From a virus (Duplodnaviria; Heunggongvirae; Uroviricota; Caudoviricetes), in the IMG/VR virus record IMGVR_UViG_3300007790_000263, positions 1 through 6,658 of that record: a stretch of DNA of 6,658 bases, one strand, 5' to 3'. Made by a program: the position numbers and the translations under genes. Below, one piece after another: positions 1 to 4,955 of the stretch. Every line of letters starts with the position of its first letter. Within the stretch, counting starts at the first letter, position 1. A model generated the notes under the pieces. The model was not told the DNA's origin. It saw nothing but the letters and a program-made list of their open reading frames with translations, and made no database searches.

Positions 1-314
1 CTACTCCCTGCTCAATATTTACTACAAATTTAACAATAAATTAAAACATATCAAACTAAACAATGGGGGGTAAGATTCACTCATGAAATGTATTAAAAAT
101 GATTCATCAGCTAGCCACAGTACTTTCTTACATACGACGTGCCTTCACTTTCAACTCCCGCCAACTCACCAATCAGGACAGGAAAGCAGGCAGAAATCCC
201 TCAAAAACCAAAAAAACAATTTTTATACTGAAAATCAACAAGTTAAACAATGAAAATTATCCTCCCCATCGATTTTCACCTCATCAAAAAGAGTTTTTTC
301 TAATATAGAATCCT

Positions 315-341
315 TTGTTTCATCAGTTTTTTTGTTATAAA
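315..341 (+). promoter_or_regulatory. Putative sigma70-type promoter for the membrane-protein/TIR operon (extended -10 TGtTATAAA at 333-341, weak -35 TTGTTT at 315-320)
   Basis: TGnTATAAA-like extended -10 about 30 nt upstream of the ATG at 373, followed by a GAGGA Shine-Dalgarno at 363-367. The -35/-10 spacing is short (~15 bp) and the region is AT-rich, so hexamer matches are easy to find by chance. Confidence 0.3.
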
Positions 342-372
342 GTATACTTTTGATCAAAGTCTGAGGATATTC

Positions 373-831
373 ATGAGTACAGAAAACTTACAACCAGAAC
401 ATCGTGATGACGGATTACCCGCTAAAATAGCAGCATTAGCAAGTCTGCAAGCCATAATTGCAAGGATGGCTTCAAATTCACAATTAATGAAAACGTGGGC
501 CATCACTATCGTTACTGGATTCATAGCTATCAAGTCGACTTTTGGTGGACTTGGGTATCTATCTTATCTAGTGCCGATTCTTATTTGCATTTCATTCTCC
601 TTTCTTGACTCTTATTATCTTTCTCAAGAAAAGATATTTAGAGATGTTTATAATAAATTAGCGGCCATTCCCGTTGGGAACGAAATGATGTACCTAGATT
701 TCAAAGGCGAAATATATAAAACTTCACAAGAAGAAAATAATTCATTAATGATTTGTTTCAAGTCCCCATCAATTAGTTTATTTTATATCCCAATGGCAAT
801 CATTTCTACAGTGATATTAATCATAGGATAA
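373..831 (+). CDS. Small membrane protein (152 aa, about three predicted TM helices); candidate effector or partner of the downstream TIR-like protein
   Basis: ORF from the track; GAGGA at 363-367 sits 5 nt before the ATG. Hydrophobic helix-length stretches at about aa 41-57, 59-78 and 133-152 (C-terminal ISLFYIPMAIISTVILIIG). Only 4 nt separate its stop from the next start, implying an operon. AT-rich codon usage matches the neighbouring gene. No family recognised by eye. Confidence 0.65.
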   Translation: MSTENLQPEHRDDGLPAKIAALASLQAIIARMASNSQLMKTWAITIVTGFIAIKSTFGGLGYLSYLVPILICISFSFLDSYYLSQEKIFRDVYNKLAAIPVGNEMMYLDFKGEIYKTSQEENNSLMICFKSPSISLFYIPMAIISTVILIIG

Positions 832-835
832 TATT

Positions 836-1654
836 ATGCTTGTTAAATTCAGAATAGATCGAAATACAATTACAAATAACAGCACAATTTTAAACGCTAA
901 TGACAACCATTTAATTTACTCAAACCTAAATGACACAGATATAAACTCAAAAATATTTGACGCTGTAAATGGTGAAATATCAGCAAAGAAACTAGCCGAC
1001 GAACTATTTCCTGAAAACGAACCACACATTTTTATATCTCATAGTAGCAAAGACGTAAATGTAGCAATAAGTCTAGCAAACACTCTTTATGCAAAATATA
1101 AGATAACATCTTTCATTGACTCCCAACTTTGGGGACATATTGACCACGCACTAAAGGAAATGCATAATCGATACTGCAAGATCCCCGGCTCATCTTATTA
1201 CCACTATGATAAATCTAATAACCTACTATCTCATATGCACGCCATACTAAGTATGGCTTTAATGAGAGTAATGGATAACGCTGACAGCGTTATATTTATC
1301 GAATCCGGCAACTCAATTTACCAATATATGGGAGATACTACCATTGCTCCCCAAGAAGCAATTGAAAAAACATCTGAAACATTATCTCCATGGATATCCT
1401 CTGAGGTGAATTTTGCAAATACCTTAAGATTGAAAGGCCATAAAGATAGAGAACAACCATTAATGGAAAGCACAGATTCATACTCTTTAAACAAGAGTAA
1501 TATTAAAGCAGACTCCTTACCCAAAATAATACATGAAGTCAACTTAAGTAAATTCATAGAGATAGACAACAAAAAATTCAAAGAGTCTTTATCATTAAAT
1601 GAAACAAATCCAATAAAAACTTTAGATATGATTTACCAAATATATGCTCAATAG
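836..1654 (+). CDS. TIR-like domain protein (ThsB-like / DUF1863-type), 272 aa, with N- and C-terminal extensions
   Basis: ORF from the track; AGGA at 823-826 upstream. Residues 64-72 (IFISHSSKD) match the first beta-strand signature of bacterial TIR/ThsB-like domains (compare vFfSfhyqD). TSFIDSQ forms a plausible second strand. SPWISSE (aa 184-190, Glu codon at 1403-1405) resembles the S-x-W-C-x-x-E-l motif that carries the catalytic Glu of TIR NADases. About 60 aa N-terminal and 70 aa C-terminal to the domain have no recognisable family. Confidence 0.7.
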   Translation: MLVKFRIDRNTITNNSTILNANDNHLIYSNLNDTDINSKIFDAVNGEISAKKLADELFPENEPHIFISHSSKDVNVAISLANTLYAKYKITSFIDSQLWGHIDHALKEMHNRYCKIPGSSYYHYDKSNNLLSHMHAILSMALMRVMDNADSVIFIESGNSIYQYMGDTTIAPQEAIEKTSETLSPWISSEVNFANTLRLKGHKDREQPLMESTDSYSLNKSNIKADSLPKIIHEVNLSKFIEIDNKKFKESLSLNETNPIKTLDMIYQIYAQ

Positions 1655-1682
1655 GTAGTTTTTATTTTTAGCATCTAATAAA

Positions 1683-1714
1683 CCGTTGGCACATCATATA
1701 CAACGTGCCAACGG
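1683..1714. terminator. Stem-loop at the island boundary: perfect 10-bp inverted repeat CCGTTGGCAC / GTGCCAACGG with a 12-nt loop; possible bidirectional intrinsic terminator
   Basis: Inverted repeat read directly (1683-1692 and 1705-1714), 28 nt after the TIR gene stop. The T-rich run lies on the left side, so it gives a U-tract (UUUAUU) for minus-strand transcripts; the plus-strand side has a poor U-tract. Confidence 0.45.
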
Positions 1715-1861
1715 AACGAGTCAATTACAATTATTTTATGGCAGGAAAAACTGACGAATCAATATCTGGTTCGGTTGCTGTATCAATACGGTTCAGCAAC
1801 ACCTAATATTTCTTCCATGCCGCCAGCAATGAGGTCTCCTCTGCCGCCACAATACCCAAAT

Positions 1862-2002
1862 CTACGGCATCCTGAAGCGGTGCAATATGCTCACCCTGAT
1901 TTTATCTTCAAAAATCCGGTCGCATCCTGCACAGTTCAACGCATTACGTTGTAGATCGGTATTCTGGTCATTTGTTGATACGCGTACATAGCCAATAAGC
2001 AT
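1862..2002 (-). pseudogene. Truncated serine DNA invertase (Gin/Hin/Pin/Cin family), N-terminal ~35 codons only
   Basis: Minus-strand ATG at 2002-2000 preceded by GGGAG. Codons 1-35 translate to [35 protein letters not shown], which matches the invertase N-terminus including the catalytic-Ser motif YVRVST, as recalled. After codon 35 the frame reads [11 protein letters not shown] and stops at 1862-1864; none of the three frames downstream resembles the rest of an invertase. Intact invertases are about 180-190 aa. Confidence 0.75.
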
Positions 2003-2028: not shown

Positions 2029-2421
2029 ATGATGCCATTTGCTCGTTATTTCTGCATTTTCATAAACGTTGGTTTGGGAGAAGCGGCTAAAAGGAATGTA
2101 GGGACAGGGGCGAATCAGATACCTGATATGGGTAGCTTCACGCTTTCTGTTTCAGGTACTGGATATCAAAAATTACCATCAGGTTTTATTCTTCAGTGGG
2201 GTTCAATCGGCGCACCAGGCATTGCACAGGATGTGGTAACCCATTTTCCGATTGCATTTCCAAACCGATGTCTGCGTGTTTTGGTCTCACAAGACTACAC
2301 ACCAGATAGCGGGGCTGTTGGTTATATTGCCTGCGCAGGTTTTAGTTCCGACCCGGTTAAATTTATATCCAGAGCCGGTACTCCAGGTCTCGGCGCTTCA
2401 TTTTTAGCGTTAGGCTGTTAA
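2029..2421 (+). CDS. Alternative tail-fibre C-terminal variable cassette (promoterless; in frame with the fibre constant region after inversion)
   Basis: ORF from the track. Its ATG at 2029 lies outside the invertible segment and has no proper RBS (AGGA abuts the ATG). From the crossover site at 2057-2082 the frame reads [10 protein letters not shown], with the same frame and GLGE junction as ENLGLGEG in the expressed fibre gene. TAA stop at 2419-2421 is followed by a good RBS and the tfa' start. Confidence 0.6.
2057..2082. other. Left invertase crossover site (hix/gix/pix-like 26-bp site, TTTTCATAAACG-TT-GGTTTGGGAGAA)
   Basis: Inverted relative to the site at 3925-3950: its right half GGTTTGGGAGAA is the exact reverse complement of the left half TTCTCCCAAACC of the other site. 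Has the AAACC-NN-GGTTT core architecture of hixL (TTCTTGAAAACCAAGGTTTTTGATAA, from memory). Lies 55 bp from the invertase start. Confidence 0.75.
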
Positions 2422-2442
2422 TTTAGCTATATGGAGTGAAAA

Positions 2443-2883
2443 ATGAATTACATATATTCCGCGACTACAAACTCTTTCTATCCACTGGAAATGAAAGAGG
2501 ATTACACTCAAGCTGACTCATGGCCAGATGATGCTGTTGAAGTTGATGAGCAGGTGTATATTGAGTTTTCCGGATTACCGCCGGAAGGAAAAATCCGTAT
2601 CGCTGGAGAAAATGGTTTTCCTGCATGGTCTGAAATTCCACCACCAACACCTGAGGAACAGATTGCTGCAGCCGAACTGGAAAAGCAGCAACTGATTAAT
2701 CAGGCCAACGATTATATGAACAGTAAACAATGGCCTGGTAAAGCGGCTATTGGTCGTCTGAAAGGTGAGGAACTGGCGCAATATAATCTGTGGCTGGATT
2801 ATCTGGACGCACTGGAGCTGGTCGATACTTCCAGTGCGCCAGATATTGAATGGCCTACGCCTCCGGCAGTTCAGGCCAGATGA
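2443..2883 (+). CDS. Tail fibre assembly protein, alternative-orientation copy (Tfa' / U'-like), 146 aa
   Basis: ORF from the track; GGAGTG RBS at 2432-2437. C-terminus DIEWPTPPAVQ carries the W-P-x-x-P ending typical of Tfa chaperones and parallels DVIWPELPEA in the convergent tfa. Lies directly downstream of the alternative fibre cassette. Confidence 0.75.
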   Translation: MNYIYSATTNSFYPLEMKEDYTQADSWPDDAVEVDEQVYIEFSGLPPEGKIRIAGENGFPAWSEIPPPTPEEQIAAAELEKQQLINQANDYMNSKQWPGKAAIGRLKGEELAQYNLWLDYLDALELVDTSSAPDIEWPTPPAVQAR

Positions 2884-3457
2884 CATCCGGCGCGGTGCTG
2901 GTATCTGTTGCCGTCACCGCGTCAATGTAATCCAGCACAGCGTTAAGCCGGGTTGTTTCTGCCTGCGTCAGTTTCCGCCCGGCCTGTAATTTCAGCTGAA
3001 TCAGACTAATGGAAGCCATTGCTGCATCAATCAGTGACTGGCGCTGTGCTTCTGCCGCTTCTACTGCGGCACCGTGTTGTGCCTCAGAATCTGTCACCCA
3101 TTTCTCACCATCCCATTTATCATATGTCGTTAACGGGACGATAGTGGTTGTATTTTCAGGGTAATCACCCGGAGCTGTGATTTCTTTTGCTTCTCCTGTT
3201 TCGGTGCTATAGATAATTTCACCGCGATGGTCTGGCATATATTCCCATGAGTTTAAATCTACTGAACGGCAGATTGCATAACCAGCCTTATATGTGCCAG
3301 GAGCATCTAAACAGGAATATGCCGGGATACCGACACCAACGGCAAGATATTCATTTGAAGTGGAAATATATTCCCGTGTTTCACCATCATAGTTATAGAC
3401 GGTAATATTCCCCGCCTTCGTGGCAATAAGTTCGCTATTTAATACGGCTTTATCCAT
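2855..3457 (-). CDS. Tail fibre assembly protein (Tfa / U-like chaperone), 200 aa
   Basis: ORF from the track. Its start overlaps the fibre stop (TAATG at 3455-3459). C-terminal DVIWPELPEA motif. Sits immediately downstream of the tail fibre, in the position of Mu U / P2 G. Confidence 0.8.
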   Translation of the reverse strand: MDKAVLNSELIATKAGNITVYNYDGETREYISTSNEYLAVGVGIPAYSCLDAPGTYKAGYAICRSVDLNSWEYMPDHRGEIIYSTETGEAKEITAPGDYPENTTTIVPLTTYDKWDGEKWVTDSEAQHGAAVEAAEAQRQSLIDAAMASISLIQLKLQAGRKLTQAETTRLNAVLDYIDAVTATDTSTAPDVIWPELPEA

Positions 3458-4275
3458 TATGCAGCTCTCACGATATAGTTAAATGCAATATTTCGTGGAC
3501 GGGTTTCGCTCCCACCTGTGTTACCAATACTCCCTCGTGTATGTAGCGTTGGTGATGGAATCAGAGTTCCTCCGGCATCGGCAGCATCAAGCCCCCGGCC
3601 TTGCGTATATGCTCTTCTGAAGATTGTCGCCAGTTCCCATTCCTCTTTTGAATCATACCCATCGTTGGCAACAACAATATGGCGGTGTTTTTCCAGCATC
3701 CCAGTCTGAATGCTCAATAAAGCACGTCCTGCATCAATACCACGCCCGTCATCCCATCCACGAATAAACTCACCACGGAGATCAGGTAGTTTCCCTGATG
3801 GATATGCTGTAGCAAGATGGGGATATTTCACCTTATCAAAGGCAGCGCCGTTGCATTTCAGCCAGCCCGTTGGCGGGGTTGCGGAGGGCCACGGAACAGG
3901 CACACCAACAGGTAATGCAGAGCCTTCTCCCAAACCAAGGTTTTCGAGAGCCGTTTTCACCGTGCCATCCGATTTGATATCACCAAACGGATTCTTGCGG
4001 CTCAGGTATTCAACAGCAAACCCCGATCCCAGCAATTCAACAAAACCGGGCAGATCACCATTATCAAGCACATCCCGTTGCGTTTTATCACTTACAAACT
4101 GGGCCAGAGCTGCAGCAATAAAGCTGGCCTGCCGAATAACCTTATTGACTTGCGCACTGGAGGCTTTCCCTGCTGTAAATCCGGATAAAAGCGCGGGCAA
4201 CGCTTCCCATTCCTCCTGCGATATAACATTGGCATTTCGATCCGTTGCAAACGCTTTAAAGTCATTTTTCGCCAT
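3457..4275 (-). CDS. Tail fibre protein (constant N-terminal part outside the invertible segment, variable C-terminal tip inside it)
   Basis: ORF from the track (longest form 3457-4293). I prefer the ATG at 4275-4273 (MAKNDFKAF...) because it overlaps the upstream stop as ATGA and has GGGGAG about 10 nt upstream, whereas the 4293 start has AGGAG only 1 nt from the ATG. C-terminus ...[19 protein letters not shown] matches the conserved ending of Tfa-dependent fibres (lambda Stf / T4 gp37 / Mu S type, from memory). The crossover site lies in-frame at ENLGLGEG. Confidence 0.8.
3925..3950. other. Right invertase crossover site (TTCTCCCAAACC-AA-GGTTTTCGAGAG) inside the tail-fibre gene
   Basis: 26-bp site with the AAACC-AA-GGTTT core, close to the hixL consensus. 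Inverted partner of 2057-2082. Falls at about codon 112-118 of the fibre gene, at the constant/variable boundary. Confidence 0.75.
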
Positions 4276-4955
4276 CAGAGTAATACTCCCCATGCTCCTA
4301 CATCAAAACCACTGATGAATTCGTTATCCATATCAAAACCAAAAAATTTTGAGCCTTCCGATGGGGTTTCCACCGAAGGTGTTTCAATGCCACCCGCCCA
4401 TACCCCGGCGGCTTTTACTGTGAGATACCCCTGTTTAATTGCCGCAATTAACTCACGCGATACATCTGAAATATCAGTATCAGGAAAGACCCAGACCGAT
4501 ATCGTCATGTCCTGGTTATCGACTATCTGCATTCGCAGCCCGGATCCTGCTGTTGCAGCGTCAAGAATTGCCGGAAGCGAATCATTCCGTCCATCCCAGT
4601 TATTAATCGCAATCTTCGCTTTAAGAATGACACGATAAGTTTCATCGCTGAGGTACATGTATCCGGAATCAGGATCGTATGGTCCCTGCCATACCCCCTG
4701 ATCATATCCAAGCCCGTCGGTATCCCAGCTGAAATAGACACCTGAGATAGGCTGGCTGACAACACGGCTACGTCCGATCCACAATCCCAGAATGTCAAGT
4801 TGCACACCAACCGCAGAGTCAATATCAAATGCAGTAATCAGCCCTCTGGTGGCAGCCGCAACATCAATAAGCGGCCGGGTCATCAGATCAACATGCGCAA
4901 GAAATTTAGGTTTGGTGGCGTGGTAGTTCGTGATTAGTTCGGTGTATTTGCTCAT
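4275..4955 (-). CDS. Phage baseplate/tail protein at the gpI position (226 aa)
   Basis: ORF from the track; GGTGGAG RBS upstream. ATGA overlap with the J-like gene upstream and with the fibre gene downstream. Function is assigned from its position in the V-W-J-I-H-G order; I do not recognise the sequence confidently. Confidence 0.65.

Follow-up and report, generated by a model that had tools for sequence, protein, structure and literature searches.

The 6658-bp stretch of DNA analysed here (the window) carries a tail-fibre switch next to the remnant of an invertase gene, and raises the question of whether such a switch can still be turned after its own enzyme has been lost. The carrier was found to be a temperate Escherichia coli myovirus prophage beside yfhH and not e14, and the neighbouring baseplate genes indicate that the fibre gene belongs to the tail module. 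The e14 P region itself was considered as an identity for the locus and rejected, since the locus lies at yfhH and not at icd among e14 genes (ymfQ, mcrA). The switch and its upstream neighbours comprise the following features:

2070-3937, invertible segment of 1868 bp, holding both tip cassettes and their chaperone genes
2057-2082, invertase-proximal 26-bp recombination site of the pix type, TTTTCATAAACG TT GGTTTGGGAGAA, central TT at 2069-2070
3925-3950, fibre-proximal 26-bp recombination site within the fibre gene, TTCTCCCAAACC AA GGTTTTCGAGAG, central AA at 3937-3938
3938-4275, minus strand, constant N-terminal part of the fibre (residues 1-113), outside the segment
3457-3937, minus strand, tip A, currently joined (272-aa fibre), with a phage tail Collar domain
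2855-3457, minus strand, tfaA, chaperone gene of tip A (200 aa; Pfam Caudo_TAP, E=4e-32)
2443-2883, plus strand, tfaB, chaperone gene of tip B (146 aa; Pfam Caudo_TAP, E=6e-38)
2029-2421, plus strand, tip B cassette, currently unjoined, a 130-aa ORF whose 18-residue leader begins outside the segment
4275-6658, minus strand, upstream baseplate genes for a DUF2612 wedge protein, a Baseplate_J protein and a 117-aa protein, and the end of a spike gene

According to the original prediction, two inverted 26-bp sites of the hix/gix type surround a segment of approx. 1.87 kb, and comparison with the sites of e14 and Salmonella bore this out. A repeat finder returned inverted arms at 2064-2083 and 3924-3943 (20 nt, 95% complementary), and the exact 15-mer TTGGTTTGGGAGAAG was found once on each strand, at 2069-2083 (plus) and 3924-3938 (minus); 0.01 matches to it are expected by chance, and two copies were seen in none of 200 shuffles. 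Both sites are inverted and imperfectly palindromic, with matching central dinucleotides (TT/AA). The reverse complement of the site at 2057-2082, TTCTCCCAAACCAACGTTTATGAAAA, is identical to the pinE-proximal site of e14 from E. coli K-12 (26/26 bases), as is the site at 3925-3950 to the stfP-internal site of the same element (26/26), and published work places the crossover of the e14 P segment at these same inverted repeats (PMC12529663). With hixL, read from a Salmonella genome, the fibre-proximal site has 20 of 26 bases in common by manual count. No third crossover site was detected in the window, even at three mismatches; shufflons and other multiple-inversion systems (Rci or Min type), which need more than two sites, are therefore ruled out.

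When 2070-3937 was inverted in silico, the fibre frame stayed open. Read from the ATG at 4275, the current fibre is 272 aa long and the inverted one 229 aa; with the upstream ATG at 4293 the lengths are 278 and 235 aa, respectively. The placing of the crossover inside the fibre gene, with both joints in frame, was thus confirmed, also by the occurrence of both joints in natural genomes. The Gly-Leu-Gly-Glu hinge proposed to be common to both fibres was found as predicted (residues 114-117, encoded by the inner half-site of 3925-3950), and the constant part, given earlier as approx. 115 residues, was corrected to 113. The junction expected after inversion, ...NVGLGE..., was wrong, as the Asn-Val codons lie in the invertase-side outer half-site and remain there.

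By Pfam, the two tips have unrelated folds. Tip A matches Collar (PF07484, E=2.4e-14) and shares 58% identity with StfE of e14; a public assembly collection has 414 indexed blocks with exactly this protein. Tip B, once joined by inversion to give the 229-aa fibre, matches Gp53-like_C (E=1.6e-15). The ORF coordinates and the Caudo_TAP domain in both chaperones agree with the proposal that each tip has its own tfa gene and that the two genes converge with a 29-bp overlap (2855-2883); the e14 genes tfaP and tfaE likewise overlap by 29 bp, and tfaA is approximately 89% identical to e14 tfaE at the nucleotide level. The locus has the features of the Mu S/U-S'/U' cassette switch, namely a crossover within an ORF, in-frame joints and a Tfa chaperone gene behind each C-terminus, and by analogy with Mu and P1 inversion of the segment may act as a host-range switch.

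The description of the switch as complete failed for the enzyme. The window encodes no invertase, and no intact small serine recombinase gene adjoins the segment; the cognate invertase left of the site is reduced to 35 codons fused to foreign DNA, as the features of this side show:

1898-2002, minus strand, remnant of a Pin-type serine invertase, a truncated gene of 35 codons
1918-1980, minus strand, predicted recombinational enhancer with the Fis-site homologues TATCAACAAATGACC and GTGCAGGATGCGACC
36-1895, low-GC cargo block of 1.86 kb in place of invertase codons 36-184
373-831, plus strand, PDC-M50A-like gene (match to the PDC-M50A defence model)
836-1654, plus strand, ThsB-like TIR gene (match to the ThsB defence model)
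1683-1714, hairpin terminator in the cargo
1731-1892, minus strand, tfa 3' fragment in the cargo

In RefSeq the remnant is labelled 'recombinase family protein, incomplete, missing C-terminus'. Its homology to intact 184-aa pinE genes ends at approximately 1896, and the sequence beyond codon 35 is a C-terminal fragment of tfa. At the same chromosomal site, Rb-50 has an intact 184-aa pinE (Resolvase and HTH_7) at the corresponding position, and two independent truncations of the invertase were found, at codon 35 and at codon 104. The DNA substrate is complete, with two sites, an enhancer-homologous stretch and two cassettes. The enhancer stretch, which lies wholly within the remnant, aligns gap-free with hin, gin and two intact pin genes. 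Its coordinates were taken from this kind of alignment, to hin of the Salmonella genome, together with the published dimensions of the hin enhancer, which is 65 bp long and located approximately 100 bp from hixL (PMC3798978). The centres of the two Fis-site homologues are 48 bp apart (the hin register) and approximately 97 bp from the centre of the recombination site, and from the alignment 1918-1980 is predicted to act as a Fis-dependent enhancer. It should be noted that conservation of this stretch is not independent evidence, because it also encodes a conserved catalytic motif.

A lambdoid prophage at the icd site of a different strain has a copy of the cargo block, 84% identical, behind its tail fibre. 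The switch stands beside defence cargo because the prophage end is a cargo hotspot, and the locus shows how defence-gene cargo at such an end can erode the adjoining phage functions.

That the segment exists in either orientation and breaks at the two sites is known from the comparison of the window with E. coli P4 and from the joints in complete E. coli genomes, 51 of which have the constant part joined to tip A and 17 to tip B. In P4 (RefSeq GCF_029962445.1), 2070-3937 is exactly inverted relative to the window without a single mismatch, and the truncation junction is identical to that of the window; with its segment re-inverted, P4 has no differences from GCA_021295535.1 over 6658 bp. Two assemblies with the same truncation are thus identical at all 6658 bases except for the orientation, and the segment was therefore inverted after the loss of the invertase. 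Orientation differences of this kind are a record of past inversion and say nothing on its rate. For annotation, the orientation in any single assembly is arbitrary, and the recombinase fragment of 35 codons should be treated as belonging with the unjoined tip to one invertible unit.

The flip after the loss most likely took place via a Pin-type enzyme supplied in trans. Altogether, we consider it highly probable that the locus is a fibre switch of the Pin type (Hin/Gin/Cin/Pin, the 'Din' family) whose own invertase was destroyed, and that the orphan substrate was flipped by a Pin-family invertase encoded elsewhere. In this mechanism a serine invertase would pair both pix sites, cut at the central dinucleotides and rotate the 1868-bp segment, so that the constant residues 1-113 would continue into tip A (Collar, with tfaA) in one orientation and into tip B (gp53-like, with tfaB) in the other; the late tail operon would contain just the tip in use and the tfa gene downstream of it. 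The cargo replaced codons 36-184 of the invertase and left the sites, the cassettes and the enhancer-homologous DNA in codons 1-35 untouched, and the orphan segment would then depend for its inversion on a Pin-family enzyme from another locus of the genome. The identity of this enzyme, the function of the enhancer and the effect on host range are what we infer. In this locus we see a naturally occurring fibre switch that lost its own enzyme and was nevertheless flipped later, which fits recent evidence for Pin-type invertases acting across prophages. For sites of exactly this type, action in trans is established: the e14 P segment is turned by PinQ and PinR, which are encoded in different prophages (Kirigo et al. 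2025, PMC12529663), and PinE also acts on the G segment of Mu and the H segment of Salmonella (PMC12529663).

As for the possible source of the enzyme, a chimeric query (unique cargo plus the 3' part of pin) matched two places in P4 and FP4 and one in KOr019, and a pinR control query one place in each of the three. P4 and FP4 have one extra C-terminal homologue of pinE type elsewhere on the chromosome, a figure that is a count of homologues and carries no statement on gene integrity; this homologue may be the source of the enzyme. A location of the second pinE-type gene of P4 in an e14 element at icd was rejected, as a lambdoid prophage with sitABCD/iss was found there, with no invertase. The search with pinR detected no pinR/Q-like gene in P4, FP4 or KOr019. 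In KOr019, which has the same truncated locus, no pinE- or pinR/Q-type gene was detectable on the chromosome by megablast, and not every member of the lineage therefore has a trans enzyme.

The closest known system is the P segment of e14 with PinE, in which both sites are the same and the layout matches: a short fibre with a constant N-terminus, a convergent tfa pair with its 29-bp overlap, and an unjoined tip with an MMPF... leader, followed by an invertase gene that reads away from the segment (the remnant in our case). The segment is 1868 bp long here and 1797 bp in e14. However, e14 is carried at icd and the present prophage, with its DUF2612/Baseplate_J baseplate, at yfhH; the last ~30 residues of the constant fibre part are 90% identical to StfP of e14, whereas the first ~85 are unrelated, and the gp53-like tip shares just 27% identity with that of StfP. 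In addition, K-12 keeps PinE in cis, whereas here 35 codons and cargo take its place. In e14, the product StfE2 consists of the leader and the gp53-like tip and is reported to block T2 adsorption following trans inversion by PinQ (PMC12529663). The locus resembles the system of Kirigo et al. in having the same sites and, in one orientation, an ORF of leader and gp53-like tip; it differs in the loss of the cis enzyme and in the absence of a pinR/Q-like gene from the three genomes searched.

A further reading, to which we assign a rather low probability, is that the locus is a maintained 'orphan' substrate: cargo swaps at the prophage end would repeatedly kill the invertase, the sites, the cassettes and the first 35 codons would be kept for control by invertases of other prophages, and the present orientation could also express a host-protecting free tip similar to StfE2.

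Alternatively, the segment may have been locked when the invertase was lost, both orientations being inherited from enzyme-bearing ancestors or gained by recombination with relatives. The dead invertase gene and the chromosome of KOr019 with no detectable pinE- or pinR-type gene are in favour of such a frozen state, as is the fact that each of the three complete RefSeq genomes carrying the truncation has the segment in one and the same orientation. However, a single cargo/invertase junction is found with the segment in either orientation, in two assemblies that differ in nothing else. For this, the truncation would have had to arise twice, independently and in identical form, or the stretch from site to site, and nothing more, would have had to be exchanged without leaving any scar; furthermore, even the truncated copy that has diverged furthest (58 SNPs) still has all four segment ORFs intact. 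We therefore regard this explanation as unlikely.

Co-option for host defence, as an additional or alternative role, appears to us improbable as well. The unjoined cassette would, in one orientation, be produced as a short free tip protein that starts with the invertase-side leader and masks surface receptors against other phages, an analogue of StfE2 serving the host beside the Thoeris-like cargo. The ORF at 2029-2421 is indeed built like StfE2, with an 18-residue leader and then the gp53-like tip, the reported block of T2 adsorption upon trans inversion by PinQ (PMC12529663) provides a precedent, and the neighbouring genes match the ThsB and PDC-M50A defence models. Nevertheless, the low identity of the tip to that of StfP argues against it, and no promoter-like site was found for this ORF, the scan around the site being no better than expected from shuffled sequence. 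The prophage also retains an apparently full tail and head module, which fits ordinary phage use, and the adjacency to defence cargo is explained by the hotspot at the prophage end.

Homologous recombination is inefficient at 15–20 bp, which is well below the length that it needs. A RecA-dependent flip between the short inverted repeats, or an assembly artefact, in place of site-specific recombination is therefore very improbable: the 15 identical bp around the crossover do hide the exact exchange point, which is unreadable from the sequence, but the segment is broken precisely at sites that match the experimentally used pix sites base for base, an 18-nt inverted repeat within the tfa 3' ends is without any corresponding rearrangement, and independent assemblies agree within each orientation.

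The type of switch is ordinary and well known, and what is known of its mechanism is unchanged by the locus. Among switches of the Mu type, which include the C segment of P1 with Cin, the comparison was made on Mu. The G segment of Mu with Gin is alike in that a constant fibre N-terminus is joined to alternative C-termini with an assembly gene after each, in the position of the invertase gene beside one site (start approximately 67 bp from the site centre), and in the 5' coding region of gin, which aligns without gaps over the enhancer stretch. It differs in its 3-kb segment, much longer fibres, the TC/GA core dinucleotide in gix and an intact Gin. The Salmonella H segment with Hin likewise has 26-bp sites with an AA/TT core and an enhancer whose position, inside the first ~30 invertase codons, is homologous to that of the enhancer predicted here (PMC3798978; our alignment), but it flips a promoter for flagellin genes and not a coding-sequence cassette, and its enhancer lies 10 bp further from the site.

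The window holds a tail-fibre cassette switch of the Pin type, which has recombination sites identical to those of e14 (the cryptic prophage of E. coli K-12) but lies in a different prophage. A repeat finder run on the window returned an inverted repeat with 20-nt arms (2064-2083 and 3924-3943, 95% complementary), and the exact 15-mer TTGGTTTGGGAGAAG was found once on each strand (2069-2083 and 3924-3938); in shuffled sequence it gave 0.01 matches on average and never two copies in 200 shuffles. The two inverted 26-bp sites of the original prediction, which flank an invertible segment of 1868 bp (2070-3937), are thus borne out.

Recombination sites and cassettes
2057-2082, invertase-proximal 26-bp site, TTTTCATAAACG-TT-GGTTTGGGAGAA
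2083-2421, tip B, Pfam Gp53-like_C (PF21882, E=2e-15)
2443-2883, plus strand, tfaB, the chaperone gene of tip B, Pfam Caudo_TAP
2855-3457, minus strand, tfaA, the chaperone gene of tip A, Pfam Caudo_TAP
3457-3937, tip A, Pfam Collar (PF07484, E=2e-14)
3925-3950, fibre-internal 26-bp site, TTCTCCCAAACC-AA-GGTTTTCGAGAG

After reverse-complementing one of them, the two sites match at 21 of 26 positions, with identical inner half-sites, and no third site was found in the window with up to three mismatches allowed. For comparison with authentic sites, sequence was fetched for three regions: that of e14 in K-12, the Mu G region, and hin in a Salmonella genome, where a scan for the hixL sequence located the locus. 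The fibre-internal site is identical to the stfP-internal site of e14 and the invertase-proximal site to the pinE-proximal one (26/26 each), while the former shares 20 of 26 bases with hixL by manual count, in agreement with the predicted hix/gix type. The same repeats, TTGGTTTGGGAGAAGG and CCTTCTCCCAAACCAA, have been named as the sites of crossover for the P segment of e14, which measures 1797 bp (2025 paper, PMC12529663). Secondary inverted repeats of the window (2793-2810/2919-2936 and 1759-1784/2824-2849) stem from a conserved C-terminal coding motif of tfa (LDY(L/I)DA..., TS(S/T)APDIEWP); the former pair also occurs in e14, CS6L and Rb-50, and none of these repeats showed a rearrangement.

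In-silico inversion of the segment left the minus-strand fibre gene open, with a product of 272 aa in the present orientation (counted from the RefSeq start codon, the ATG at 4275) and of 229 aa after inversion. The crossover dinucleotide provides bases 2 and 3 of codon 113, and both joints take their Gly-Leu-Gly-Glu from the inner half-site; the continuous frame and the hinge hold as predicted. The post-inversion joint given as '...NVGLGE...' was in error: Asn-Val lies in the invertase-side outer half-site, which stays put on inversion. The convergence of the tfa genes with a 29-bp overlap was also correct. Upstream, the same strand encodes a DUF2612 wedge protein, a Baseplate_J protein and other tail components, which makes the fibre gene the final one in a baseplate operon of myovirus type. 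The DNA of the window is from E. coli; the prophage adjoins yfhH, and tail and head genes follow it for approximately 17 kb.

The tfa genes of the e14 P segment overlap by the same 29 bp, e14 tfaE has approximately 89% nucleotide identity with tfaA of the window, StfE is 58% identical to tip A, StfP shares 90% identity with the last 30 constant fibre residues, and the unjoined cassette opens with a nearly identical short leader. In contrast, the first ~85 fibre residues are unrelated to StfP, the gp53-like tip is just 27% identical to its e14 counterpart, and the prophage is another one, integrated at another site. The switch is an addition to a kind long known; the initial observation was correct and its interpretation right in kind.

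The switch had also been called complete, which does not hold in the sense of self-sufficiency, since its own invertase is reduced to a 35-codon stump and the remainder displaced by defence-type cargo. Left of the site, an ATG at 2002 on the minus strand opens the N-terminus of a Pin-type serine invertase, of which 35 residues with the catalytic serine motif remain before the frame runs into unrelated sequence. An intact 184-aa pinE (Resolvase and HTH_7) is present in the relative Rb-50, whose copy of this prophage occupies the identical chromosomal site, and alignment with that copy places window 36-1895 (1.86 kb, 28-36% GC) in the position of 488 bp with codons 36-184.

Invertase remnant and cargo block
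within 373-1654, plus strand, 152-aa membrane protein, PADLOC candidate PDC-M50A (E=4e-26)
within 373-1654, plus strand, 272-aa TIR-like protein, ThsB match (E=8e-43)
1731-1892, minus strand, tfa fragment without N-terminus (RefSeq annotation)
1898-2002, minus strand, recombinase fragment without C-terminus (RefSeq annotation)

Neither cargo protein had a Pfam hit. As a ThsA-type partner is absent from the two-gene cargo, the pair may form a variant of Thoeris type whose effector is the small membrane protein. The block also carries a strong hairpin terminator, and its tfa 3' fragment is fused directly to invertase codon 35. It probably came by recombination from a place like the tail-fibre end of a lambdoid prophage. 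In strain UMB200201_11, a lambdoid prophage at icd has a counterpart at 84% identity behind its tail-fibre gene (L019:4357-5938). This counterpart comprises the cargo genes and most of the tfa fragment and adjoins genes of retron type and for an AAA ATPase, which suggests movement of the block between prophage-end cargo hotspots. In a second lineage of the same prophage (L015:8274-9438; L020:1947-3111) a different gene, of 281 aa and with neither Pfam nor PADLOC hit, has independently cut the invertase at codon 104; cargo exchange has therefore removed the cis invertase repeatedly. It should be noted that the L020 record (ON470588.1, 'Escherichia phage vB_EcoM-611R5') has yfhH and yfhb, both genes of the host, at one of its ends and looks like a predicted prophage region, not a packaged genome, so it is evidence of phage viability only with caution.

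The RefSeq chromosome of P4, an E. coli strain with the same truncated-invertase locus, matches the window at all bases except two flank SNPs, with 2070-3937 reversed at 0 mismatches. Further assemblies that share this cargo/invertase junction and have the window orientation came up in a look-up of the exact 272-aa fibre; one of them, GCA_021295535.1, equals re-inverted P4 at 6658 of 6658 positions. Two independent truncations, or scarless replacement of the segment, could also leave such a difference in orientation, but inversion in place after truncation is much the likelier course. The most diverged truncated copy (58 SNPs) retains all four segment ORFs intact, and of the complete E. coli genomes 51 have the constant part joined to tip A and 17 have it joined to tip B. 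At 239 and 5387 the window has C where P4, GCA_021295535.1 and two further fetched sequences (L008, L009) all have T; these two private differences separate it from all the close relatives that were fetched.

As this flip took place since truncation of the own invertase, it points to an enzyme supplied in trans. Cross-action is established in the enzyme family: the G segment of Mu and the H segment of Salmonella are both inverted by PinE, and the P segment of e14 is inverted in trans by PinQ (Qin prophage) and PinR (Rac prophage) (PMC12529663). A pinE-type gene is detectable by megablast in approximately 45% of complete E. coli genomes. A chimeric query of unique cargo and the 3' 434 bp of pin gave one extra place each in P4 and FP4 and none in KOr019 (the latter two also strains with the truncated locus), whereas a control query in which K-12 pinR was substituted for pin gave a single place in each of the three. 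The extra place is therefore pinE-type sequence and not a cargo duplicate, and no pinR/Q-like gene was found in the three strains by the control. On sequence grounds this extra place is a candidate trans enzyme source, and the KOr019 segment may be locked. In P4 it is not at icd (L021:14060-50000, the fetched icd region); that e14 attachment site holds a lambdoid prophage with sitABCD and iss, and no Pin-type gene.

The hin enhancer spans 65 bp with a Fis site at either end and starts approximately 100 bp from hixL (PMC3798978). When the regions from site to gene were aligned for hin, gin, e14 pinE, Rb-50 pin and the window, no gap fell within the first 35 codons, and by homology the hin register places two predicted Fis-site homologues:

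1966-1980, site-proximal, TATCAACAAATGACC
1918-1932, distal, GTGCAGGATGCGACC

They are 48 bp apart centre-to-centre, the first ~97 bp from the recombination site centre; the ~107 bp of hin reflect a 10-bp insertion between site and gene. Foreign DNA starts at ~1896, ~20 bp past the distal homologue, and the predicted enhancer-homologous DNA thus survives within the stump. Its conservation is not independent evidence, because the stretch also codes for the catalytic motif.

In the present orientation the unjoined cassette forms a 130-aa ORF (2029-2421) of an 18-residue leader and the gp53-like tip, an architecture shared with StfE2 of e14, a protein reported to prevent the adsorption of T2 (PMC12529663). 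A similar role is conceivable as a possibility, not a finding, from this likeness in build, although the tips share a mere 27% identity and no promoter for the ORF stood out in a promoter scan. An assembly with the same cargo/invertase junction (L007) has a different tip B/tfaB cassette (L007:7572-8168 versus window 2092-2704), with the remainder of the locus >99.5% identical to the window, and cassettes are therefore also exchanged by recombination.
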